Virus genome (UHGV): UHGV-0132893
Strand: one strand, 5' to 3'
Source: a virus
DNA length: 64,000 nt
Below, piece by piece: positions 22,969 through 52,398 of the stretch; the first letter of the stretch is position 1, and the number at the start of each line of letters is the position of its first letter. The translations under genes and the position numbers were made by a program. The notes beneath the pieces were generated by a model. It saw only the letters and a program-made list of their open reading frames with translations. It made no database searches and was not told the origin of the DNA.

Positions 22969-23010
22969 ACAAAAAAGGCTCCTTTTTACGGGAGCCTTAA
23001 ATTTTATTTT
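22969..23010. terminator. bidirectional terminator between convergent genes
   Basis: aaggctcc-tttttacg-ggagcctt hairpin flanked by A-run and T-run. Confidence 0.5.
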
Positions 23011-23375
23011 TCAGTATTCTTTGTGTTCTTTTCAGTAATAGCTTGCAAGGCTGATACTGATTGAGCCAGATTGTTCACACTGTCAGAGAATTTATCAAGG
23101 GTTTTGGTAAGTTTTGCGTTTTCACCCTTAACATTCTCTAACTGAACTTTCTGGTTCTCCATCCCTAGCTGAATCAATCTCATGTCAGACTGTAAATCAC
23201 GAATAGCTGAATAGTTACTTTTGGAATAATTATCTAGCTGCTGTAACTTTGTTGTGACAGACACTTCTTGTTTACCACTTGAAACCTGCATCGTGGTATA
23301 CATCCCAATAACACTAAAAATACCAACTACAATTGCACCAATATTATTTTTAAAAGCTTCCTCTAGCCACTTCAT
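23004..23375 (-). CDS. membrane-anchored coiled-coil protein (spanin- or chaperone-like)
   Basis: N-terminal TM helix IGAIVVGIFSVIGMYTT then coiled-coil; immediately downstream of tail fibre genes. Confidence 0.4.
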   Translation of the reverse strand: MKWLEEAFKNNIGAIVVGIFSVIGMYTTMQVSSGKQEVSVTTKLQQLDNYSKSNYSAIRDLQSDMRLIQLGMENQKVQLENVKGENAKLTKTLDKFSDSVNNLAQSVSALQAITEKNTKNTEK

Positions 23376-23570
23376 TTATTTCTCCCCCTTAAAAGCTTTT
23401 TCTAAGTTATCTACGAACTCATCATCAATAGGTGTGTCTGTTTTACTCGCAAGGTATCTTGCAAGCTTAAAGAACACTTTCTCAATCATGTATTCACTTA
23501 GAAGGGATAAAATGAGTTTCCAGAAGAAGCTACCTAGATTTTTTAGAAGAATTGCTAGGATTGTAGGCAT
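23376..23570 (-). CDS. small hydrophobic protein (holin-like candidate)
   Basis: 64 aa with hydrophobic N-terminal half ILAILLKNLGSFFWKLILSLL. Confidence 0.35.
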   Translation of the reverse strand: MPTILAILLKNLGSFFWKLILSLLSEYMIEKVFFKLARYLASKTDTPIDDEFVDNLEKAFKGEK

Positions 23571-23649
23571 TTAATCACCTCATCAGCCAAGATGGTGAGA
23601 ATACCCATAAAGAATATTAACACCATCTTAACAATCAGTCAACAAGGGA

Positions 23650-26199
23650 TTAAGCAGTTCTTACCCAAGCCATTAACTTATAGAACTGGTTAGTAACACT
23701 GAATGCTGAACCAGAACCAGTACCACCTGTTTTACCACTAACTGTGTGGCTGTGAGCACCAATACCAACAGTGTGGCTGTGGTTACCTGTTGTATTCGTT
23801 ACACCAGACCAGTTTCTTGATGCGTTGAAGTTGACAGGGATACCATTAGTAAAGTTATTACCAGTATACCCTTTAGAACCTGCCTGACTACCGAGGTGGA
23901 ATGCACCACTTGCTGTGTAGAATCTGCTAGTGTCACTCCTGAAGTAACCAAATGAACCAGTAATCTCCATAGTACCTCTGTTGTGGTTATGGTTACCAGT
24001 TGTGCTAGAAGTCTTAGTACCATAATCAAATGATGAAGTGGTAGCAGAGAAACTGTGTGTATGTGAAGGTAAGTTACCAACAGATAACGTTACAGAGTCT
24101 GAACCACCAGTTGTAGCAACATCTGAACCGTTTGCTGCTGCAATTCTAATAGTTCTACCAACACCATTATTCAGGTACGTCCAAGTTAACCCAGGAAGTG
24201 CTGTATTAGGGTTAACATTACTGTTAAACCACGTTACAATACCTACTGGATAGATTTTATTCAGGTCTGTAGAGTCACTAATTGCTTCTGCAATCTTCTG
24301 GTCAGTTTCTGCTTTAGTGTATGCACCAATATCTGAAGGGGTTGGTTTTTGCAAACTTGTGTAGTATTTTGCAATTGTACCCTTCACAATACCTTGTGGA
24401 GCATCATCAAATGTTTGTGGGACTTCAAACAACTGCACACTTGCATTGCTAGAAGATTGAACTCTTGATGTTGTACCATTTTGGAACGTACCGACCCTAC
24501 AGTAAATATCGTAAGTGTCGCCAGATGTATTAACATAACCAATATCTGTGACAATGGTATTCTCTGCGATTCTCCAAGCTACAACATTTAAACCTTTTGG
24601 GTTGTTATTTGATGTTCGTAAAATAATCTCACACTTACCTGCTTGATGTGGCATGTTAATATTAAAACCTGACCCACCAAACACTTCAATCACCGCAGTA
24701 GATGCGGATTGCGGCATTACAACAGTAGCAATTTTAGCCCACTTTTCACCGCTTCCATTATTGAAACCAGTACTTCTGATTCTCAGGTATCTACTATCAC
24801 TAGCACTTTGTGTAAAGTATCTAGCATCTAAGTTAGAGAAATCTGAAGGTTGAACTTGTCCAGCAATAGTCAATGTTTTGTTAATGTATGATGTTGTATT
24901 TCCGAGAACCAATTGGGTTCCGGAATAACTGTTATTTAGGGTAACATCATTCGTATCAGCACCACCAACACCAATCCACCATCTTGATACATTAGTAGTG
25001 TCCACACCACGAATATATAATGGTCTATTCTGAGTAGAGTTTTTAACAATCAGACCTTCATTATCCGTAACAACTGTCTGTACACCATTAAAAGTATTCC
25101 TTGCATTAGTTCTTGCAATTGTACTTAATGTTGCTGCCGGAATATATCTAGAGTCAATGTTAGCCCAATCTGAAGGTTGAACTTGTCCAGTGATTCTGAC
25201 ATTTTTATTTGCTGATACTCCAGCAGCATCTAAGACCAAAGAGGTGTTAGTGGTATAGTTGTAGATAGTTACACCAGCACCTGAACTACCTTTACCAAGA
25301 TACCATAAGTTTCCACCTTCATAATCTTTTGCAAGTAGATACAGGGATTCGTTTGCTGATGCACATTGCAGTGTGATAGCAGCAGCATTTGAAATAACAC
25401 TCATAGTCCTAAATGTGTTAGCACCTGTAAAAGTATTATTGCCAGCTAACTGTGCAAATCTCTGATTAGCAACTGTCTGAGTGAAGTATCTAGCATCTAA
25501 GTTAGAGAAATCTGAAGGTTGAACTTGACCAGTGATTGCTAAAGACTTATTAACAGAGACATTACTTGCAACAGTCAAGGCTGAGTTGTATTTGTTATTG
25601 TACAGCTTTACTTCGTCAGAGCCATTACTACCAATACCAACCCACCATCTAGCCGAACCATCTAGGTTTACACCTTCGATATATTGTGCATTATTTGCAT
25701 TTTGGTTTCTAAGGCGAAGTAAGTTAGCATCACCTTGAATATTTTGAGTTCCAGAGAATGTGTTTGTGATAGCAAGTCTTGCGTATCTTGCATCATTCTC
25801 TTCATTAGTCCTCATACCAAGCTCATTAGGACTTGGCTTATTCAGAGTATGATAAACAGTTGCTGACCTTGAAGCATCTGCAATAGTTAGTTTAAGACCA
25901 TTTGCGTTAATTTTAAAAGTCTTTAAAATATCCCCAATAGTAATCTCAGAAGAGCCTGTAGGGTCAAATACAGACTTTCCACCGTAAAGTAACTTGACAA
26001 TACCTAAATCCCCAGTCATAGCGCTTCCAGCAATCTGAACAAACCTTTCTAGTTTGAAGGAAGCTAAGAAGTCTTGATAGGTCATTCTGCGGTCTTCATC
26101 ACCCAACATTTCAGGTCTTTTCTTAACTCTGATGTGCAATAGGTCTTCTGAACGAATTGTGTCGATTGAGTTTAATTGACTCAATTTGTAATCTGCCAT
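23650..26199 (-). CDS. long tail fibre protein with GxHxH C-terminal repeats
   Basis: 849 aa; three internal repeats ITGQVQPSDFSNLDARYFTQ; C-terminal GNHNHN/GNHSHT/GAHSHT motifs. Confidence 0.7.
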   Translation of the reverse strand: MADYKLSQLNSIDTIRSEDLLHIRVKKRPEMLGDEDRRMTYQDFLASFKLERFVQIAGSAMTGDLGIVKLLYGGKSVFDPTGSSEITIGDILKTFKINANGLKLTIADASRSATVYHTLNKPSPNELGMRTNEENDARYARLAITNTFSGTQNIQGDANLLRLRNQNANNAQYIEGVNLDGSARWWVGIGSNGSDEVKLYNNKYNSALTVASNVSVNKSLAITGQVQPSDFSNLDARYFTQTVANQRFAQLAGNNTFTGANTFRTMSVISNAAAITLQCASANESLYLLAKDYEGGNLWYLGKGSSGAGVTIYNYTTNTSLVLDAAGVSANKNVRITGQVQPSDWANIDSRYIPAATLSTIARTNARNTFNGVQTVVTDNEGLIVKNSTQNRPLYIRGVDTTNVSRWWIGVGGADTNDVTLNNSYSGTQLVLGNTTSYINKTLTIAGQVQPSDFSNLDARYFTQSASDSRYLRIRSTGFNNGSGEKWAKIATVVMPQSASTAVIEVFGGSGFNINMPHQAGKCEIILRTSNNNPKGLNVVAWRIAENTIVTDIGYVNTSGDTYDIYCRVGTFQNGTTSRVQSSSNASVQLFEVPQTFDDAPQGIVKGTIAKYYTSLQKPTPSDIGAYTKAETDQKIAEAISDSTDLNKIYPVGIVTWFNSNVNPNTALPGLTWTYLNNGVGRTIRIAAANGSDVATTGGSDSVTLSVGNLPSHTHSFSATTSSFDYGTKTSSTTGNHNHNRGTMEITGSFGYFRSDTSRFYTASGAFHLGSQAGSKGYTGNNFTNGIPVNFNASRNWSGVTNTTGNHSHTVGIGAHSHTVSGKTGGTGSGSAFSVTNQFYKLMAWVRTA

Positions 26200-26245
26200 T
26201 ATGAATTTTCCTCTTAAAAGGGGCTATAAAGCCCCTGTAAAGAAA

Positions 26246-27421
26246 TTAAGCTGTTCTCTGCCACACATACACTACAAAAGATGGCTGCTCAACACTGAAT
26301 GCTTGACCACCACCAACAGAACCAGTTGTCCCTGAGTGTGTATGCTCAGAGCTAGAAACAGTAACAGTGCCTGTATGACTGTGCGAACCAATATTAACAG
26401 TGTGGCTGTGAGCACCAATTGCGACAGTATGACTATGAGCACCAAATGATGCAGTTGTACCTGAGAAGCTATGGGTGTGAGCACCAGCTAAATCAGTATA
26501 CATAGCATTACCAACACCAGCATCAGCAGATGCAGTAATAGCATTTGTGCCACCCCTATCATTACCCCTCATAGGAACTCTATGGTTGTGGTTACCAGCA
26601 TTACTTGTTGTGCCACTAAACGTGTGAGTGTGAGCACCAGCACTATTAGTCGTTTTTGTACCGTAATCAAAAGTTGATGTGCTTTTTGAACCATAATCAA
26701 AACTAGAGATAGATACACTTGCAGAGTGTGTATGACCACCACCTGTTAGGTAGATAGAGTGAGTATGTGCTGGTAAATTATTATTTGTTAATGCTACAGT
26801 CTGAGAACCAAACATTGAACCAACAGGTCTAGAATCTGTATCATAACCAACTAGTGCCCTACCTTTAGAAACTAACTCCCAAGTGCCACCACAAAGCAAG
26901 TAAGTGGATGGGTTAGCAGAGTTAACAGACAGATGAATAGTCCCCACTGGATATGATGCTTGGATAGCTTTGTATAAGTTATTCACTGCTCTCGCTGTAG
27001 CATACTTATCAGCATCTTCATTGTACAGATTGGATGTTGTCCAGTTCTGAACATTACTTAAACCGACCTGTGCTTTCGTTGTGTTATGTGGGTTACTTTT
27101 GTCGTCAATATGTTGCTGAATTAAGTTATTCACTTCCTCTGACGACATAATTTGTAGATTTGCTCTTGCCTCAGCAACATTCACAATGTCTGACAAGTTA
27201 TTAGCTGCAACTAATTGAAGAGAGTTAATAACATTATCAAGACCCACTTGTGATTTAGTTACACCATGAGGATTATTCCTCAGAGATGCGTGAGGTGCTA
27301 ACAACTGCTCAAGCGTACATCTTTTATCCTCAACACCTTGCTTAAGGTGGAAGATATCACTCAAATCAATTGGTAAGGCCGCTTGTGGCAAGGCACTAAT
27401 TTGGATTTCACCTACTGCCAT
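26246..27421 (-). CDS. tail fibre protein with GxHxH repeats
   Basis: 391 aa; GGHTHS, GAHTHTFSG, GNHNHR, GAHSHTVAIGAHSHTVNIGSHSHT; C-terminus similar to the 849-aa fibre. Confidence 0.65.
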   Translation of the reverse strand: MAVGEIQISALPQAALPIDLSDIFHLKQGVEDKRCTLEQLLAPHASLRNNPHGVTKSQVGLDNVINSLQLVAANNLSDIVNVAEARANLQIMSSEEVNNLIQQHIDDKSNPHNTTKAQVGLSNVQNWTTSNLYNEDADKYATARAVNNLYKAIQASYPVGTIHLSVNSANPSTYLLCGGTWELVSKGRALVGYDTDSRPVGSMFGSQTVALTNNNLPAHTHSIYLTGGGHTHSASVSISSFDYGSKSTSTFDYGTKTTNSAGAHTHTFSGTTSNAGNHNHRVPMRGNDRGGTNAITASADAGVGNAMYTDLAGAHTHSFSGTTASFGAHSHTVAIGAHSHTVNIGSHSHTGTVTVSSSEHTHSGTTGSVGGGQAFSVEQPSFVVYVWQRTA

Positions 27422-27423
27422 TA

Positions 27424-27726
27424 TTAAGCTCCTACATATTCATATGTGTAAAGGTTTCTTGTACTTGTTGATGCAGTCCCTGTCTCAGACTTAATGAGGT
27501 TCCAGCCATTAGCCACTAAATCTGGTTGCTCAGTTGCATATGAACGAACTTCACCAACAGTGCCATTTACTTTATTCAGCAGGTAGTTGATAATATAGTT
27601 GAACCACTGTCTACCCATAGGCTCACCCTTTAAAAGACCTGTCTCTTGAACTTCCGGTGGTGGTAAAACTTTTAACTGATTACCATCAGTATCTACTTCG
27701 TTTGTAGACCAATTTAGAACTGCCAT
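27424..27726 (-). CDS. tail fibre / baseplate-associated protein
   Basis: 100-aa ORF between baseplate and fibre genes. Confidence 0.4.
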
Positions 27727-28580
27727 TAAGAATTTCCTTCTTGTTGTGATTTATCTTTTCTGCCTTTGACAATTTGTGCAACCTCAGCCATGATTCCATA
27801 TGCACCACCTGCAATAGCTTCTTTACCAGCAATGAAATAGCCACTATTATTAGACCTATCTACAGTCATATAATCATCGCTCTGTGAGTTTGCTGTTCTG
27901 TCAACCTTAAAGTAACCATCAATAACACCAGCATCTGCAAGACTCCCTACTAGGTTGGACTCCAGAGAGCCACCAGTGTTATTTGTTACCAGACCTCTGT
28001 TAGCATCAGTTACAAACCAGTTCTCTTTATCATCAACAATAGCAAGTGATGAATCAGCAACCTCTACAGGTGTCCAAGCGGTCCCATTTAAAGTAACATC
28101 TCTTAAGATAACAGCGGAACCAGTGGTTGTTGCAGAAATCTTTGACAGTGTATATGCAGCATCAAGAACGCTTTTTCTAGTATTAATACGGATAACGATA
28201 CCACCAGTCTTAGGAGTAATATGCTCAAAAATCTGAGAGAAAGTTGCACCATACAATGTCATAATTGCTTTTTGCAAGAATGTTGGAGTAGTATCAGAAC
28301 GTCTTAGGAAGATTTGGATATAAAGCATAGCTCTGTATGTTTCATCATCAGCACCTAAAGGTCTAGGAACTTTAATCAGTGAGCCAATATTATCAAGTTG
28401 TTGACCTACTGACGTCCTGATATTTCTCTCTGTGTGCATCTGCCAGCAAACATCCTCTAGAGTTTGTAATTCATCAGTGATTGCTTTCAAGATACTTGTG
28501 TAGATAAATTTATCTTTAAACTGTGTTACAGTCCTTTCATCAAGTGTTTTGTAATAAACACTATCAATCTTTTCAAACAT
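27726..28580 (-). CDS. baseplate protein (P2 gpI / Mu gp48-like position)
   Basis: 284 aa; gene order after baseplate J-like protein. Confidence 0.45.
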
Positions 28581-30052: not shown

Positions 30053-35436
<5,384 letters not shown>

Positions 35437-47144: not shown

Positions 47145-47220
47145 TGGAGAATCCGAAGGGACTCGAACCCTTATAAACCTGTTTTGCAGACAGGCACATA
47201 GCCATTTCTGTCACGGATTC
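47145..47220 (-). tRNA. tRNA-Cys (GCA)
   Basis: TGG (CCA) start on plus strand, T-arm aaggg-actcgaa-ccctt, anticodon arm cctgt-tttgcag-acagg. Confidence 0.6.
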
Positions 47221-47224
47221 AAAT

Positions 47225-47317
47225 TGGAGGAAGATACCAGACTTGAACTGGTACACCGATTTCTCAGCTACTGGCAGTTTAGCAAACTGCTCCCTTACCT
47301 TTTAGGGTTAATCTTCC
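47225..47317 (-). tRNA. tRNA-Ser (GCU), long variable arm
   Basis: T-arm accag-acttgaa-ctggt; anticodon arm gcagt-ttagcaa-actgc; acceptor ggaagat/atcttcc. Confidence 0.6.
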
Positions 47318-47319
47318 AT

Positions 47320-48054
47320 TTATTTCTGTAATGCGTTCTTCATTTCTGGTGTTGCAATAGTGTCAATTACACCAGTTTTACAAGCATCATCAAACCAGTC
47401 TGGTAAGATACCTGCTAAGAACCCATTGATATTCGTTTTAAGGTACTCTGCAATAAGAGAAGCTTCTTCTTCAATCATCTGCACAACTTCATCTGCATAA
47501 GCTGTAATCTTTGAGATACCTTCATTAATCTTACTAACAGCTTGGTTAGCTAAATCAGAAATAGTATCAAGACCTTTGTCAATAGCGTCTTGTAAGTCAC
47601 TTAATACATCATTAACACCGTCTAGTGCACTGTTAATCGTATCAATAGCTTTTTGGCCATACTCTGTAGCAACACCCATAATACCACTAAATGGTGTACA
47701 ACCAACTTGTTCACCTGCTGCACCCATAACATTAGAATAGCCTTTTGCTACCTGCATACGTGATGAGAACTCATCAATGGACTTTTGACCGTAATCTGTC
47801 AGTGTTTTGGTAGTTGATGTAGTGCTTGTCAGACTCGTGGTAAAGCTGTTAAGCAGAACTGTTGTAAGTCCAGCAGCAACAAGCTTATCCTTTACTGTAG
47901 GGTCTGATACAGAGCTAATAGAGCTTACAAGTGATGTAGAGGCAGCTACGGTTCCACCGAGAACTGCTGCACCAGTAATAAGGGGGTTAGAAAACCCTTT
48001 ACCAGTTTTTAAGAGATTGAAAATCTCCTTACCTTGTTCTGTCATCTCTTTCAT
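47320..48054 (-). CDS. hypothetical protein (Ser/Thr-rich N-terminus, helical C-terminus)
   Basis: ORF track 47320..48117 overlaps a tRNA; start moved to internal Met at 48054. Confidence 0.45.
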   Translation of the reverse strand: MKEMTEQGKEIFNLLKTGKGFSNPLITGAAVLGGTVAASTSLVSSISSVSDPTVKDKLVAAGLTTVLLNSFTTSLTSTTSTTKTLTDYGQKSIDEFSSRMQVAKGYSNVMGAAGEQVGCTPFSGIMGVATEYGQKAIDTINSALDGVNDVLSDLQDAIDKGLDTISDLANQAVSKINEGISKITAYADEVVQMIEEEASLIAEYLKTNINGFLAGILPDWFDDACKTGVIDTIATPEMKNALQK

Positions 48055-48070
48055 TAAGCACCTTTGAAAT

Positions 48071-48147
48071 TGGTAGTCCAGTGGGATTTGAACCCTCTTC
48101 TCATGTTTTTCAGACACGCGCTTTAACCATATAAGCTACTTGGACTA
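48071..48147 (-). tRNA. tRNA, tentatively Phe (GAA)
   Basis: T-loop atttgaa, acceptor tagtcca/tggacta; anticodon loop ttttcag with 4/5-bp stem. Confidence 0.5.
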
Positions 48148-48152
48148 TAAAT

Positions 48153-48228
48153 TGGGGTGACCTACGGGATTTGAACCCGTATAGACCATGTTCACAGCAT
48201 GGGTCATTACCATTTATGATAAGGCCAC
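48153..48228 (-). tRNA. tRNA-His (GUG)
   Basis: T-arm acggg-atttgaa-cccgt; anticodon arm ccatg-ttcacag-catgg. Confidence 0.6.
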
Positions 48229-48259
48229 ATTTAAGGACTCTCGTAAGAATCCTTAGAAG

Positions 48260-48335
48260 TGGCAGCGGCATAAGGATTTGAACCTTAATAGGACAGCTTC
48301 AGAGACTGCTGCATTGCCAGTTATGCTATACCGCT
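48260..48335 (-). tRNA. tRNA, anticodon not resolved
   Basis: T-arm taagg-atttgaa-cctta, D-stem gcat/atgc, acceptor agcggca/(t)accgct. Confidence 0.5.
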
Positions 48336-48340
48336 AAATT

Positions 48341-48418
48341 TGGTACTCCATATCGGATTCGAACCGATACATAACACAGATTTTAAGTCTGGCCTCTCTG
48401 CCAATTGGAGTAATGGAG
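48341..48418 (-). tRNA. tRNA, anticodon tentative (loop reads UAA but no long variable arm)
   Basis: T-arm atcgg-attcgaa-ccgat; loop caga-ttttaag-tctg. Confidence 0.45.
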
Positions 48419-48421
48419 CAT

Positions 48422-48497
48422 TGGCGGGGGATGTTGGAATTGAACCAACTTCTTCGATTTCAAAGACCGAGGTTTTAACCTTGTAAACTAATCCCCT
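48422..48497 (-). tRNA. tRNA-Gln (UUG)
   Basis: T-arm gttgg-aattgaa-ccaac; anticodon loop ttcaaag; acceptor gggggat/atcccct. Confidence 0.55.
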
Positions 48498-48505
48498 TTA
48501 AATCT

Positions 48506-49063
48506 TTACTTTCTTAGTGGATGAATAAAGAATGCCAACATAACTCTTTCCCTTGAGAATGCTCTTTCTTTTGGAACAACACTTTTGAGTTTCCATCCAA
48601 CATAAATTCTCCAGTAGAATTGTTTACCAAAGATTTTAATTGATGGAATAAAAGCGAATAATCCCCAAGCATTACTGTTCCACATTAGGAGATAACCAGT
48701 CTGATTATCTTCAGGGTTAGAACTTACGTTGATATTACCTTTCCACTTAGTAACATCTTTTACATCTCTTCCTAACACATGGTAAGAGAAGTTATAAGCT
48801 TTGTTTCTCCAGAGCCATCCAACTCTCTGCATGTAGACACCAAGCTTACCAATCTTTCTAATCTTAGCCCATCGTTTGATATGACCTGCATCACCATCAA
48901 TTGGGTTGTCATAAGTCTCCATCCATCTGAACCCGAAAGGTAAGTGTCCTTTCTTCTCACTGTAGAATGGAACTACAAAAGGTGCTAAGATAACTGCTAA
49001 GATTGCTGCAAATGGTTCTAACAAAGCTAAGAAAATCCATGAAGCATACTTTAAGTATCTCAT
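48506..49063 (-). CDS. membrane protein embedded in tRNA array
   Basis: 185 aa; N-terminal hydrophobic helix WIFLALLEPFAAILAVILAPFVVPF. Confidence 0.45.
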   Translation of the reverse strand: MRYLKYASWIFLALLEPFAAILAVILAPFVVPFYSEKKGHLPFGFRWMETYDNPIDGDAGHIKRWAKIRKIGKLGVYMQRVGWLWRNKAYNFSYHVLGRDVKDVTKWKGNINVSSNPEDNQTGYLLMWNSNAWGLFAFIPSIKIFGKQFYWRIYVGWKLKSVVPKERAFSRERVMLAFFIHPLRK

Positions 49064-49302
49064 TGTCTAATCCTCGTAAGGAGGTAAATGTTATTATTCG
49101 TTTCTAAACCTTCTGGTAAAACTGTCTCAAAAATAACACTCTTCAGATGTCTACCACCAAAACAATCACGTATAAATCTTTCTACTCTAGCGGGGTCACA
49201 TAAGTATCCCACTTTTAAGAAAATGTGGTGTTCAACACCAATGACCCTGACAAACTCAATACTCTCACAGTTTTCATGTTCAACTACTGTTAATGTTTGC
49301 AT
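49060..49302 (-). CDS. hypothetical protein embedded in tRNA array
   Basis: 80-aa ORF coupled to downstream ORF. Confidence 0.4.
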   Translation of the reverse strand: MQTLTVVEHENCESIEFVRVIGVEHHIFLKVGYLCDPARVERFIRDCFGGRHLKSVIFETVLPEGLETNNNIYLLTRIRQ

Positions 49303-49319
49303 AGTATCACCTGTTTATC

Positions 49320-49395
49320 TGGCGCAGGATAAGGGATTCGAACCCCTATTAACAGCTTCGTAGACTGTTGCTCTTTCCATTTGAACTAATCCTGC
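49320..49395 (-). tRNA. tRNA-Arg (ACG)
   Basis: T-loop attcgaa; anticodon loop ttcgtag; acceptor gcaggat/atcctgc. Confidence 0.55.
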
Positions 49396-49401
49396 AAAAA
49401 T

Positions 49402-49480
49402 TGGTGTTCCAAGACGGATTCGAACCGTCACTAATACAAGGTTTGAGCTTGCATCCTCTGCCAATTGGGATACTGGAACA
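49402..49480 (-). tRNA. tRNA, anticodon tentative (loop reads CAA)
   Basis: T-arm gacgg-attcgaa-ccgtc; D-stem atcc/ggat; loop caag-gtttgag-cttg. Confidence 0.45.
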
Positions 49481-49555
49481 TGGTACTCACTAAAGGACTT
49501 GAACCTTTTTCTTCATCTTGTAAGGGTGATGTTTTACCATATAAACTAAGCGAGT
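49481..49555 (-). tRNA. tRNA-Val (UAC)
   Basis: T-arm aaagg-acttgaa-ccttt; anticodon arm tcatc-ttgtaag-ggtga. Confidence 0.6.
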
Positions 49556-49650
49556 ATGAAAGAGGTCTGGAGTTGTGCCGCTAACTCAACTCCGTGGTAT
49601 TTGTTACGGTCTTCAGTTGACTCAAAGCGGTCTTTCACTTGACCTCTTAA
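49556..49650 (-). ncRNA. tRNA-like / structured element lacking canonical T-loop
   Basis: 8-bp terminal complement aagaggtc...gacctctt and 7-bp internal stem ggagttg/caactcc; no GTTCGAAT-type T-loop. Confidence 0.3.
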
Positions 49651-49651
49651 T

Positions 49652-49727
49652 TGGTGCTCCCACAAGGACTCGAACCCTGATAAGTTGCTTACAAGGCAAC
49701 CGTAATAACCAATTATACGATAGGAGC
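49652..49727 (-). tRNA. tRNA-Thr (UGU)
   Basis: T-loop actcgaa; anticodon arm gttgc-ttacaag-gcaac. Confidence 0.6.
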
Positions 49728-49734
49728 ATTAATT

Positions 49735-49809
49735 TGGAGCATCCAGAGGGAATCGAACCCTCAACCTCAGTTTGGAAGACTGTAATTTTCCCGTTTAAAC
49801 TATGGATGC
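49735..49809 (-). tRNA. tRNA-Gly (UCC)
   Basis: T-arm gaggg-aatcgaa-ccctc; anticodon loop ttggaag; acceptor gcatcca/tggatgc. Confidence 0.55.
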
Positions 49810-49815
49810 ACTAAT

Positions 49816-49891
49816 TGGTGGAGTCACCGAGAATTGAACTCGGTTCCCAAGTTTGCAAAACTCGAGTTTTAACCATATAAACTATGACCCC
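49816..49891 (-). tRNA. tRNA-Ala (UGC)
   Basis: T-arm ccgag-aattgaa-ctcgg; anticodon loop ttgcaaa. Confidence 0.55.
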
Positions 49892-49897
49892 ATTGTT

Positions 49898-49973
49898 TGG
49901 TACAGGTGGAGGGAATTGAACCCATCGTCTTACTGATTAAGAGTCAGCCGCATAACCATTTTGCTACACCTGC
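49898..49973 (-). tRNA. tRNA-Lys (CUU), paralog of 51228..51303
   Basis: T-loop aattgaa; anticodon loop ctga-ttaagag-tcag; near-identical acceptor/T regions to Lys(UUU) copy. Confidence 0.5.
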
Positions 49974-49980
49974 ATTAATT

Positions 49981-50058
49981 TGGTAGGAGACAAGGGATTC
50001 GAACCCTCAAACACCAACTTCTAAGGATGGTAGGTTTACCAATTACCATCAATCTCCC
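49981..50058 (-). tRNA. tRNA, anticodon tentative (loop reads UAG)
   Basis: T-arm aaggg-attcgaa-ccctc; loop ccaac-ttctaag-gatgg. Confidence 0.45.
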
Positions 50059-50316
50059 ATTAAATCTTTTTAGAGAACTTCTAAGAACCTAAGCAACAAG
50101 GTTCCACAACAAGCTGTAATAACCTTAGAAGCCCTCTAAAAAGACCTAAAAAGGTCTTTGCATAGTCTTGTTTAATCCGGTGACTAGAACCTTTGGAGAG
50201 CTTGATATTATCTCTTCTCCGTGACACCTACTAGGTGTTTTATCAGTGTGTACGACAATACACGAGGGATACCAAAGCAACATCCGAATGAAGCTTGGCT
50301 TTAAAATCTTATTAGG

Positions 50317-50404
50317 CGGTAAGTAAAGGAGTCGAACCCTCACCGTATCTCTACAGTGGCAACTGTTTTCAAGACAGTTTGGCTACCATTAGCCGCTACC
50401 TACC
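50317..50404 (-). tRNA. tRNA-Ser (UGA), long variable arm, CCA apparently not encoded
   Basis: anticodon arm aactg-tttcaag-acagt; ~20-nt variable region; weak T-stem. Confidence 0.45.
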
Positions 50405-50417
50405 CCTAATAAGACTT

Positions 50418-50500
50418 TGGCATGGGACGGAGGAGTTGAACCCCTTTGAAACGGTTTTGGAGGCCGTTGCTCATGCCTTAGAGTCTTAACATCGTCCCAT
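50418..50500 (-). tRNA. tRNA-Trp (CCA), unusually long D region
   Basis: T-loop agttgaa; anticodon arm acggt-tttggag-gccgt; acceptor atgggac/gtcccat. Confidence 0.5.
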
Positions 50501-50643
50501 ACTATAATTCGAAGCTTACCGTATTATCTCAACACTGTAAAGCCCCTTCTCAGATTATTTACATGTTCTGGAAAACATGAGATACAGACCACCTCCCTAC
50601 AGGAAGACCCTCTAAGGTCGTCTAAGTAATCTGCTAACTAAAT

Positions 50644-50720
50644 TGGCACACCCTACAGGATTCGAACCTGTAACTAACGATTTAGAAGACCGTTGCTCTA
50701 TCCAATTGAACTAAGGGTGC
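50644..50720 (-). tRNA. tRNA-Arg (UCU)
   Basis: T-arm acagg-attcgaa-cctgt; anticodon loop ttagaag. Confidence 0.55.
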
Positions 50721-50995
50721 ATTAACATTTTAAAGGGTACTTATTGCATTTAAGCCAAGCCCCATAAGGGATACCCTTTAGAATGTTGCCCACCTTATTA
50801 ATCATACCGTGGGCGAGTACGCCAAATTCTTTGATGAGGGATTGGAAGACCTCACTGGTGTTTAGCCTATCAAGCTACTGCCAGAAAAACATTGTCGTTT
50901 GCATTTATTTTAAATTTGCAAAATAGACGCTACGCAACGAAAACTAAGGTTACTATAAAGTAGTCACATCTCAATGTCAACAACTTTATTGAAAT

Positions 50996-51071
50996 TGGTA
51001 CTGGTAGGTGGAATCGAACCACCGATGTTCCCTTATCAGGGGAGTGTTATAACCTTCTTAACTATACCAGC
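50996..51071 (-). tRNA. tRNA-Ile (GAU)
   Basis: T-arm ggtgg-aatcgaa-ccacc; anticodon arm ttccc-ttatcag-gggag. Confidence 0.6.
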
Positions 51072-51072
51072 T

Positions 51073-51149
51073 TGGAGGTTCAGATGGGAATCGAACCCAC
51101 ATTCATAGGGCTTATGAGACCCTTGCATTACCTTATCTGCGACTGAACC
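51073..51149 (-). tRNA. tRNA-Met (CAU)
   Basis: T-loop aatcgaa; anticodon loop ttatgag; acceptor ggttcag/ctgaacc. Confidence 0.55.
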
Positions 51150-51227
51150 AGAATAAGTACCCTAGTTAGAGAAACTGTTGAGTGGGTGTTTCCAGCCGCG
51201 CAGGTGTTTCTCAGTTAAGGGTGAATT

Positions 51228-51303
51228 TGGTAGAAGTGGAGGGATTCGAACCCATCGCCTGTCAGATTAAAAGTCTGCCGCATCACCATTCTGCTACACT
51301 TCC
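51228..51303 (-). tRNA. tRNA-Lys (UUU)
   Basis: T-loop attcgaa; anticodon loop caga-ttaaaag-tctg. Confidence 0.55.
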
Positions 51304-51306
51304 ATT

Positions 51307-51449
51307 AAATTATCTTTGTAGATAAGCTACCCAGACTTGCTTAAGGTCTGTAGCGATGTGCCTTTTGGGTTTAAATCTAGAATTTACCCTTCACCCTTTG
51401 TGGTCGCATACTCACAGGTAAGCTTAATAACTTATCTACAAAGATAATT
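51307..51449. repeat. 19-bp perfect inverted repeat (aattatctttgtagataag / cttatctacaaagataatt) flanking 105 bp
   Basis: exact reverse complements at 51307-51325 and 51431-51449. Confidence 0.7.
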
Positions 51450-51730
51450 ACCAGACCGTTGTTTATCATCTTAAGTGCTACCATTACACCAACTCGACAT
51501 CTGCCGAGTGAAGGAATCGAACCTTCGCCTTTTCTTTACCGGAGAAATAGATTGTTTAAGTTTTGCTGTAAACGGTCTTCTGTAAATTTGTTGAGCCAGA
51601 CCAAGTTTTAAATTTTCAAAATTAAATTGGCTTGAAATTTCATACATTCTTGCTGTATTTGGTCTTCTGCTCCTTTAAAGAATACTCGTAAGAACTCTTT
51701 AAGGGAGGAGCTAAATAGCCCTCTCAAAAT

Positions 51731-51807
51731 TGGCGGCTACGATGAGACTTGAACTCACATCATCTCCCGTGACAGGGGAGTATTTTCTCCAGTTAAACTA
51801 CATAGCC
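51731..51807 (-). tRNA. tRNA-Asp (GUC)
   Basis: T-loop acttgaa; anticodon arm ctccc-gtgacag-gggag. Confidence 0.6.
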
Positions 51808-51812
51808 TTTAT

Positions 51813-51901
51813 TGGTGTGCCGTGTAGGAGTCGAACCTACCGAGTCTCAATGACAAGGGATTTACAGTCCCCACCGCTACCATCTACGGGATAACGACAC
51901 A
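51813..51901 (-). tRNA. tRNA-Tyr (GUA), long variable arm
   Basis: T-arm gtagg-agtcgaa-cctac; anticodon loop ggga-tttacag-tccc; ~15-nt variable arm. Confidence 0.6.
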
Positions 51902-51908
51902 TTTAATT

Positions 51909-51985
51909 TGGCGGTTAGTCAGGGATTCGAACCCTGTGCCATTCGCTTAACAGGCGACCGCACATACCTTATGTGCTTCCTAACC
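51909..51985 (-). tRNA. tRNA-Asn (GUU)
   Basis: T-arm caggg-attcgaa-ccctg; anticodon loop ttaacag. Confidence 0.55.
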
Positions 51986-52068
51986 ATGTTTAGTATTACC
52001 AGACCGTATCTTTCAATTTTTCCGCTAAAAATTTAATGAGTATTGCTGTAAACGGTCTTCTGTAAATT

Positions 52069-52145
52069 TGGAGGCGGGTGCAGGAGTCGAACCTGCCGAT
52101 ACCATGCTAATGAGACATGTGAGACGCCCTTTCTCTATACCCGCA
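52069..52145 (-). tRNA. tRNA with CAU anticodon (second copy: Met or Ile2)
   Basis: T-arm gcagg-agtcgaa-cctgc; D-stem gaga/tctc; anticodon loop taatgag. Confidence 0.55.
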
Positions 52146-52236
52146 ATTCTTAATGACCAGACCAAATCTCTTCTTTGTCCGATTTACCTTCAGATGAATA
52201 AGATTAAGTTTGCTGTAATTGGTCTTCTGTCAAAAC

Positions 52237-52314
52237 TGGCGTTCCAGAAGGGATTTGAACCCTCAAATATCCACTTTGAAAGAGTGGTGACTTTACCATT
52301 TTGTCCACTGGAAC
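52237..52314 (-). tRNA. tRNA-Glu (UUC)
   Basis: T-loop atttgaa; anticodon arm ccact-ttgaaag-agtgg; acceptor gttccag/ctggaac. Confidence 0.6.
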
Positions 52315-52321
52315 ATTAATT

Positions 52322-52398
52322 TGGTCTCTGTTGGAGGACTTGAACCTCCGGCCTTACCGCCCCAAACGGAACGCTCTACCAAGCTGAGCTAAACAGAG
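52322..52398 (-). tRNA. tRNA-Pro (UGG)
   Basis: T-arm ggagg-acttgaa-cctcc; anticodon loop ccccaaa; acceptor ctctgtt/aacagag. Confidence 0.6.

Follow-up and report, generated by a model that had tools for sequence, protein, structure and literature searches.

Two baseplate fibres of a wV8-like Felixounavirus carry related tips homologous to the receptor-binding tip of T4 gp37

In this study, we analysed a stretch of 64,000 nucleotides of viral DNA (UHGV virus genome UHGV-0132893; the whole stretch is called the window here) with respect to two consecutive genes on its minus strand, which encode proteins of 391 and 849 amino acids (aa). The two genes are those of the short tail fibre (STF, 391 aa) and the long tail fibre (LTF, 849 aa) that are attached to the baseplate of a wV8-like Felixounavirus. 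The C-terminal tips of the two proteins are homologous to each other and to the receptor-binding tip of gp37 of phage T4, and in both of them His-x-His (HxH) motifs stand in two sets around a hypervariable segment. It is therefore highly likely that STF and LTF are trimeric fibres with gp37-type needle tips that are riveted by metal ions and end in receptor-binding heads. The two related tips were recognised essentially correctly in a preliminary description made from the DNA letters alone; the feature is real and has already been published for close relatives of this phage.

The window belongs to the genus Felixounavirus, with about 96% nucleotide identity to phages KEP3 and wV8 across positions 23000-28000 in a megablast search. 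The 5-kb segment around the fibre genes is 93-97% identical at the nucleotide level to KEP3, vB_EcoM_H12, wV8 and O157 typing phages, and 262 phage records match it, nearly all of them from Felixounavirus. The preliminary description took the two open reading frames (ORFs) for tail fibre genes, which is borne out by their membership of tail fibre families in PHROG (Table 1) and by the RefSeq record of wV8; this record labels both genes tail fibre proteins and notes for one of them a similarity to the Felix O1 'putative tail fiber protein GP37'. The orthologues of STF are Bas63 gp26, Sf14 gp52, VpaE1 gp74 and wV8 gp82, and those of LTF are Bas63 gp27, Sf14 gp53, VpaE1 gp75 and wV8 gp83. LTF has homologues that are 96% identical. 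In Bas63 and wV8 the genes stand in the same order as in the window, namely wedge 2 (489 aa, Baseplate_J-like by Pfam and PHROG), wedge 1 (284 aa), a 100-aa protein, STF and LTF. The presence of the two fibres in the virion, and their attachment to wedge 2 or to the LTF-platform protein, have been established by cryo-electron microscopy (cryo-EM) and mass spectrometry for Bas63, Sf14 and VpaE1 (PMC12609058, PMC11821841, PMC4690856). No NCBIfam family was found for either fibre.

At the N-terminus, both fibres have a common motif, GVEDKRCTLEQLLA in STF and GDEDRRMTYQDFLA in LTF, in which 7 of 14 residues are identical. The cores of this motif are GVEDKRCT in STF and GDEDRRMT in LTF. The same pair is seen in the fibres of Sf14 as EDRKCT and EDRKMT (PMC11821841).

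STF contains nine HxH motifs (residues 219, 230, 264, 278, 315, 329, 338, 347 and 360), seven of them in the form GxHxH. LTF contains four, at residues 713 (PSHTHS), 737 (GNHNH), 807 (GNHSH) and 816 (GAHSH), and three of these are GxHxH. When each sequence was shuffled 5000 times, HxH occurred 1.4 times on average and seven times at most in STF, and 0.16 times on average and three times at most in LTF, as against the nine and four motifs observed. Every GxHxH motif quoted in the preliminary description is present. Its statement that both fibres end in dense repeats holds in part: the motifs are dense in STF (nine in 144 residues) and less so in LTF (four in 106), and neither protein ends there, the last ~30 residues of both (...AFSV...W.RTA) being conserved and free of histidine.

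A likeness to the metal-binding tip of T4 gp37 had also been pointed out, and it is true homology. STF matches the gp37 receptor-binding tip (PDB entry 2XGF) with E=1.4e-26 over residues 145-362, and LTF matches it with E=7.8e-7 as a single sequence and E=1.9e-17 as a family profile. That the two fibres have related tips is confirmed by direct alignment of their C-terminal regions, which gives 30% identity over ~270 columns in BLASTP (E=2e-16) and a probability of 99.9% in hhalign (E=2.7e-36; LTF 635-849 on STF 141-391). The STF collar, from which the needle starts, is recognised by the Pfam family Gp10_C at residues 154-276 with 68 bits (cut-off 27) and also matches the T4 gp10 PDB entries 2FKK, 5HX2 and 2FL8.

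The tip of T4 gp37 has seven HxH motifs, three at residues 883, 915 and 929 and then four at 966, 980, 989 and 998. In a three-way alignment all seven are matched by STF, with 219, 264 and 278 on the first three and 315, 329, 338 and 347 on the last four. STF has two extra motifs, HxH 230 in an insert of the descending strand and HxH 360 on the ascending strand. LTF 713 and 737 align on T4 883 and 915, and LTF 807 and 816 on T4 980 and 989, that is, on T4 positions 1, 2, 5 and 6. The head-proximal HxH pair and the last T4 motif are absent from LTF, and a 67-aa segment stands in place of them. In both fibres the HxH motifs thus form a 'down' set and an 'up' set that flank a hypervariable head. 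This arrangement matches what would be expected of a collar-needle-head hairpin whose HxH triplets hold Fe along the axis of the trimer. In T4 gp37, the HxH motifs of the needle coordinate seven Fe ions along its length according to two papers (PMC12609058, PMC11705849).

Sequence variability is concentrated between the two sets. Among 47 close homologues of STF, identity is above 0.8 at residues 1-195 and 331-391 but only 0.15 at residues 286-300, a stretch that lies after the fourth HxH and before the fifth. The HxH positions are kept across ~90 STF homologues as an earlier and a later cluster with a gap of variable length between them. In the LTF family, identity is 0.45-0.49 at residues 741-800, as against 93-100% at the collar (621-720) and the C-terminus (821-849). 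Over both families, identity in collars and C-termini is 0.8-1.0. LTF variants have either two plus two HxH motifs with a long head, as in the window, or three plus three with a head of 31-47 aa. HxH motifs are thus gained or lost symmetrically on both strands, as expected for a hairpin needle with a descending and an ascending strand.

From homology, we infer that the fibres are trimers, bind metal and contact the receptor with the head. Each fibre protein would form a homotrimer and be anchored to the baseplate through its N-terminal domain, which contains the ED(K/R)R(C/M)T motif. The shaft would come next, made of helix-turn motifs in STF and of three ~110-aa beta repeats and a beta-sandwich knob in LTF. 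In the gp37-type tip, the chain would descend from the collar as a thin needle, form a small head at the distal end and ascend again, and the last ~30 residues would pack back at the collar. Because each of the three chains would run down and up, the needle would be six-stranded. At each HxH, a single metal ion on the three-fold axis (Fe2+ in T4) would be held by six histidines from the three chains. STF may have up to nine such metal rivets, the seven of T4 and one extra per strand, and LTF up to four, at T4 sites 1, 2, 5 and 6. If a virion carried six of each fibre and every HxH were a site, simple arithmetic on this model would give up to 54 and 24 metal ions, respectively. The HxH motifs would then be structural rivets of the needle and not receptor-contact residues, and the receptor, in this genus a sugar structure of lipopolysaccharide (LPS), would be met by the hypervariable head between the HxH sets. 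Since the chain doubles back, the fibre would end distally in the head, which lies midway along the tip sequence, and not in the HxH repeats.

The receptors of relatives are carbohydrates. Adsorption of VpaE1 is sensitive to periodate, insensitive to proteinase K and dependent on the LPS core, a carbohydrate of which serves as the receptor (PMC4690856). Bas63 requires an intact LPS core (PMC8594841), and Felixounavirus is among the clades that recognise O-polysaccharide (OPS) or LPS moieties (bioRxiv 10.64898/2026.04.02.716166). Because the head segments of STF and LTF are unrelated in sequence, the dual receptor specificity suggested in the preliminary description appears plausible, and the two fibres probably recognise different ligands. 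The tip of the window LTF (residues 701-849) is at least 90% identical in only 17 phage records. The host of its listed carriers, wV8, KEP3 and KEP1, is E. coli O157:H7 or ATCC 35150. This restricted distribution, together with the hosts, fits a role of the LTF tip type in determining host range. A further, rather doubtful possibility is that the wV8-type LTF is a distinct tip variant, whose shortened needle has four T4-type metal layers in place of seven and whose enlarged 67-aa head, without detectable similarity to the T4 and STF heads, might be a separate receptor-binding fold tuned to O157:H7-type LPS. It would act in sequence with the nine-layer STF, whose different head would recognise a second LPS moiety, and the leaky-looking hairpin that separates the two genes might keep the LTF:STF ratio sub-stoichiometric.

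Several points weigh against the architecture proposed here. The AlphaFold2 (AF2) monomer model of STF is mediocre, with a mean predicted local distance difference test (pLDDT) score of 67.8, and in that of LTF the tip (residues 613-849) has a pLDDT below 50. A Foldseek search of the PDB with the STF monomer model did not recover 2XGF with significance; it gave weak matches only, to gp10, C24 and long beta-hairpin pore formers. PDB sequence searches with STF, LTF and the LTF profile found no solved Felixounavirus fibre chain. The Gp10_C match of the LTF collar, at 26.5 bits, lies just under the cut-off of 27. For STF 230 and 360, and for the first HxH (LPxHTHS), which stands where the collar meets the needle, the counterpart as a metal site is given by the alignment only. 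The needle geometry and the octahedral sites are accordingly predicted from sequence and profile homology, the register of the motifs, the variability and published structures, not from the monomer models. In favour of the hairpin, the STF model has a confident collar and long paired strands at residues 222-272 and 317-365, joined through a low-confidence turn at 285-305 (pLDDT <50). Many near-identical LTF homologues carry a precomputed match to PF21939.

An alternative role of the GxHxH segments has to be considered. They might mainly be landmarks in DNA or protein ('His boxes') at which heads are swapped by recombination, their structural role being secondary; the idea of recombination at such boxes reportedly comes from Tetart et al. 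on T-even gp37. Near-invariant segments with HxH indeed enclose the variable head in both families; those on the two sides of the LTF head read SSFDYGTK..G.H.H and H.HTVGIGAHSHTVSG. What distinguishes the LTF variants is an entire cassette, either the head with or without an HxH pair or the knob, and megablast matches to relatives split into three to five pieces. All of this is, however, compatible with a structural role and does not exclude it, and in the solved structure of gp37, metal coordination is already reason enough for HxH to be conserved. No paper with the term 'His box' was found in a literature search. We regard a landmark function as a serious possibility, yet as a less probable explanation of the motifs than the structural one.

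It is very unlikely that the tips arose by a recent duplication of one module and have begun to diverge in this phage lineage, as the preliminary description had proposed. The tips are homologous, and DNA-level repeats of 57-60 nucleotides with 72-75% identity occur around the HSHTVGIGAHSHTV segment in both of them. However, the STF tip has 38.8% identity to T4 gp37 over 219 aa (E=4e-27) but just ~31% to its companion in LTF (E=4e-16), so that gp37 is the nearer of the two. Moreover, full-length homologues of STF are found in Erwinia phage phiEa21-4 (Ounavirinae) and also in Yersinia, Pectobacterium and Hafnia phages, and the arrangement with two fibres is reported both in Felixounavirus (VpaE1, Bas63) and in Sf14. 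A duplication of the tip, if there was any, would be ancient, or the two tips would have been acquired separately.

The HxH motifs have also been brought into connection with a more active function: those of fibres were proposed to be iron carriers relevant to the uptake systems of the host (PMC11705849). In this sense they could be ligand-binding or catalytic sites, for a metal-dependent modification of LPS or for the capture of a siderophore receptor ('Ferrojan horse'). We consider this highly improbable, more so than a recent duplication. No part of the tip is better conserved than these motifs, yet host range varies, and the variability lies in the head. The T4 histidines are described as lining the needle lengthwise (PMC12609058), the known receptors in the genus are LPS carbohydrates (PMC4690856, PMC8594841), and Pfam and NCBIfam scans of the fibres matched no enzyme family. 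Finally, there is practically no chance that the tips are adhesin modules of the gp38 type, in which the preliminary description supposed that GxHxH motifs occur: they have only glycine richness in common with them, no gp38 Pfam family was matched at E<=0.01, the fibre sequences align to gp37 itself, and gp38 adhesins are monomeric polyglycine-II sandwiches with glycine-rich motifs (GRM) and hypervariable segments (HVS), in the description of which neither histidine nor HxH is mentioned (PMC12032242). A tblastn search of the 64-kb window with T4 gp38, the assembly chaperone, gave nothing (best E=0.21).

The remaining part of LTF is occupied by the shaft and the knob. The three ITGQVQPSD-type segments noticed in the preliminary description are there, and they turned out to be the conserved ends of three whole units of ~110 aa. 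These ends read I(T/A)GQVQPSD(F/W)(S/A)N(L/I)D(A/S)RY, with IAGQ in the third of them, and begin at residues 222, 336 and 445. The units are 32-43% identical to one another in pairwise comparison, are seen also as a repeat family in the DNA (D1), and are beta-rich with pLDDT 70-86 in the AF2 monomer. Since their Pfam family, PF20744 ('gp37_trimer'), showed no match to T4 gp37 or gp34, the name of the family alone is not proof of homology to T4 gp37. Units 2 and 3 (residues 253-475; 24775-25443, minus strand) have an identity of 0.5-0.65 among close relatives and are much more variable than unit 1 or the collar, with constant lengths. The repeats of the Bas63 LTF are likewise variable according to its authors, who give no explanation (PMC12609058). 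The LTF family profile matches T7 gp17 at residues 278-345 (E~1e-6) and the Mu fibre protein S (8JU3) at residues 557-637. In Foldseek, the LTF model matched T7 gp17, tailspike domains and T4 gp34 in the PDB; these matches reflect the shaft and the knob, not the tip, and they are in line with what has been published on Sf14 gp53 and Bas63 gp27. No Pfam family was found for the knob in a scan of residues 471-608. In LTF homologues of 790 aa, which cover just 56-63% of the query, a PF12604-type cassette replaces the knob and the tip is unchanged. The knob is thus a second exchangeable module, and it could be a second binding site.

Table 1. Location in the window of the two fibre genes, their parts and the adjoining features
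Feature	Residues	Positions	Strand	Basis and remarks
100-aa gene directly upstream of STF		27424..27726	-	PHROG 4141, E=1.5e-60; LTF-platform protein (Bas63 gp25) by synteny
STF gene, 391 aa	1-391	26246..27421	-	PHROG 2097 tail fibre, E=4.6e-139; Pfam Gp10_C; 2XGF; wV8 annotation
STF N-terminal baseplate-binding region	1-45	27287..27421	-	EDKRCT at 31-36; family conservation 83-95%; role taken from Bas63 (PMC12609058)
STF collar	141-218	26768..27001	-	aligns with 2XGF collar and gp10 C-terminal domain; pLDDT 84-89
STF needle, descending strand	219-280	26582..26767	-	HxH 219, 230, 264, 278; long beta strands in model
STF head	281-314	26480..26581	-	hypervariable; putative receptor-contacting end; occupies T4 gp37 head position
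STF needle, ascending strand	315-362	26336..26479	-	HxH 315, 329, 338, 347, 360
STF C-terminal segment	363-391	26249..26335	-	0.8-0.83 conserved; aligns with LTF C-terminus and T4 gp37 end (...IAFNYIVRLA); predicted return to collar
GC-rich hairpin, STF stop to LTF ribosome-binding site		26219..26236	-	AGGGGCU-UUAU-AGCCCCU, 7 bp, then UUUUAAG
LTF gene, 849 aa	1-849	23650..26199	-	PHROG 4277 tail fibre, full length, 1346 bits; wV8 annotation
LTF N-terminal baseplate-binding region	1-139	25783..26199	-	EDRRMT at 35-40; 91-100% conserved in family
LTF shaft, three ~110-aa repeat units	140-252, 253-366, 367-475	24775..25782	-	Pfam PF20744 three times, E=2.4e-77
LTF beta-sandwich 'knob'	476-612	24364..24774	-	all beta, pLDDT 66-85; PHROG matches at residues 480-629
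LTF collar	613-712	24064..24363	-	95-100% conserved; aligns with STF collar, hhalign 99.9%
LTF needle, descending strand	713-739	23983..24063	-	HxH 713, 737
LTF head, 67 aa	740-806	23782..23982	-	variable; putative receptor-contacting end
LTF needle, ascending strand	807-818	23746..23781	-	HxH 807, 816
LTF C-terminal segment	819-849	23653..23745	-	93-100% conserved; aligns with STF C-terminus; predicted return to collar

Between the two fibre genes there is a GC-rich hairpin with a minimum free energy of -16.5 kcal/mol (z=-2.9). It failed a simple terminator scan; the wV8 record has a rho-independent terminator annotated at this place. The short U tract suggests that the hairpin is leaky, and it might have a role in setting the LTF:STF ratio. 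Virions of Bas63 have 0-6 long fibres each (PMC12609058). The starts of the LTF, STF and 100-aa platform genes (26193-26215, 27414-27440 and 27719-27745) have a similar translation-initiation region (DNA repeat families D13 and D16), and all three proteins begin with Met-Ala.

Two small ORFs of 64 and 123 aa follow the LTF gene at 23004-23570 on the minus strand, each with one N-terminal hydrophobic stretch as judged by eye. In the records of JN01 and GEP101 a holin is annotated inside the matched stretch, and in the T4 record the holin gene t comes after genes 37 and 38. A bidirectional terminator-like hairpin is located at 22975-22998, between the convergent genes of thymidylate synthase (plus strand) and the 123-aa protein (minus strand), and a terminator is annotated there in wV8, too. 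The baseplate spike protein of 207 aa (30471-31094, minus strand) has a single HxH (NEHTHHYY) at residues 188-190, the position of the iron-binding motif H188/H190 in the central spike of Bas63 (PMC12609058). By this match in position, it would be a third type of HxH metal site in one tail module. Elsewhere in the window, 26 tRNA genes are clustered at 47145-52398, all of them on the minus strand.

Felix O1-like phages serve in the typing of Salmonella and E. coli O157, in biocontrol and in therapy, and their host range is determined by the fibres. The domain map, with a conserved collar, HxH rivets and an exchangeable head, shows where specificity could be re-engineered, as is already in the literature for relatives. 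What is new in the window is a sequence variant only, with nine and four HxH layers and a 67-aa head in LTF, and no new principle.

Among the known systems, the gp38 adhesins of the T2/S16 type resemble the tips of the window in being glycine-rich and modular, in having conserved motifs that bracket hypervariable segments and in standing at the end of myovirus fibres. They are, however, separate monomeric proteins with a polyglycine-II sandwich and without HxH metal sites (PMC12032242), and they are not homologous to the tips. The C-terminal domain of T4 gp10 and other tail collar domains (PF21939, PF07484) have no more than the collar fold in common with the tips; gp10 itself belongs to the baseplate and lacks an HxH needle. 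The tip of T4 gp37 (2XGF; domains D10-D11) is homologous in collar, HxH needle and C-terminal return strand and likewise has its head between the HxH sets, whereas the head sequences of gp37 and of the window fibres are unrelated. With its 1026 aa, T4 gp37 makes up the distal half of a fibre built from four proteins, whereas in the window each fibre is one gene product placed directly on the baseplate. T4 gp37 needs the chaperones gp38 and gp57A, and the T4 record labels gp38 only 'tail fiber assembly'. T4 binds OmpC or LPS; for Felix O1-like phages, LPS is the only receptor known.

Closer counterparts are found among the relatives within and near the genus. In VpaE1, homology to the T4 gp37 adhesin was noted in 2015 for gp74 (aa 146-362) and gp75 (aa 584-780) (PMC4690856). 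The cryo-EM study of Sf14 in 2025 described two fibres of 391 aa (gp52) and 792 aa (gp53), which possibly bind different receptors (PMC11821841). Sf14 and VpaE1 are like the window in having two fibres that agree with STF and LTF in length and architecture and have the shared N-terminal motif, with a domain like the T4 gp10 C-terminus in the short fibre and parts like T7 gp17 and the Mu fibre in the long one. The length of 792 aa suggests that the Sf14 LTF resembles the 790-aa variants. The authors of the Sf14 study assigned the C24/gp37-like domain to a place 'in the centre' of the fibre, which reflects the hairpin topology. Sf14 differs from the window in belonging to another group of Ounavirinae (its close relatives are called Moogleviruses, PMC11821841), and the hosts and LPS types are different, too.

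Bas63 (Escherichia phage JohannRWettstein) shares with the window the genus, the gene order (wedge 1 of 284-285 aa) and the variability of both the tip and the repeats of LTF. Its cryo-EM study in 2025 described collar, HxH needle and head in both fibres and suggested that the number of di-histidines scales with the length of the needle (PMC12609058); the repeats of its LTF are of beta-helix type and resemble the gp34 rod of T4 (PMC12609058). The same paper counts seven HxH in the STF of Bas63 and six, with HHxH, in its LTF, as against nine and four in the window. Compared with the LTF of Bas63 as described there, the LTF of the window would have a shorter needle and a larger head, of 67 aa.

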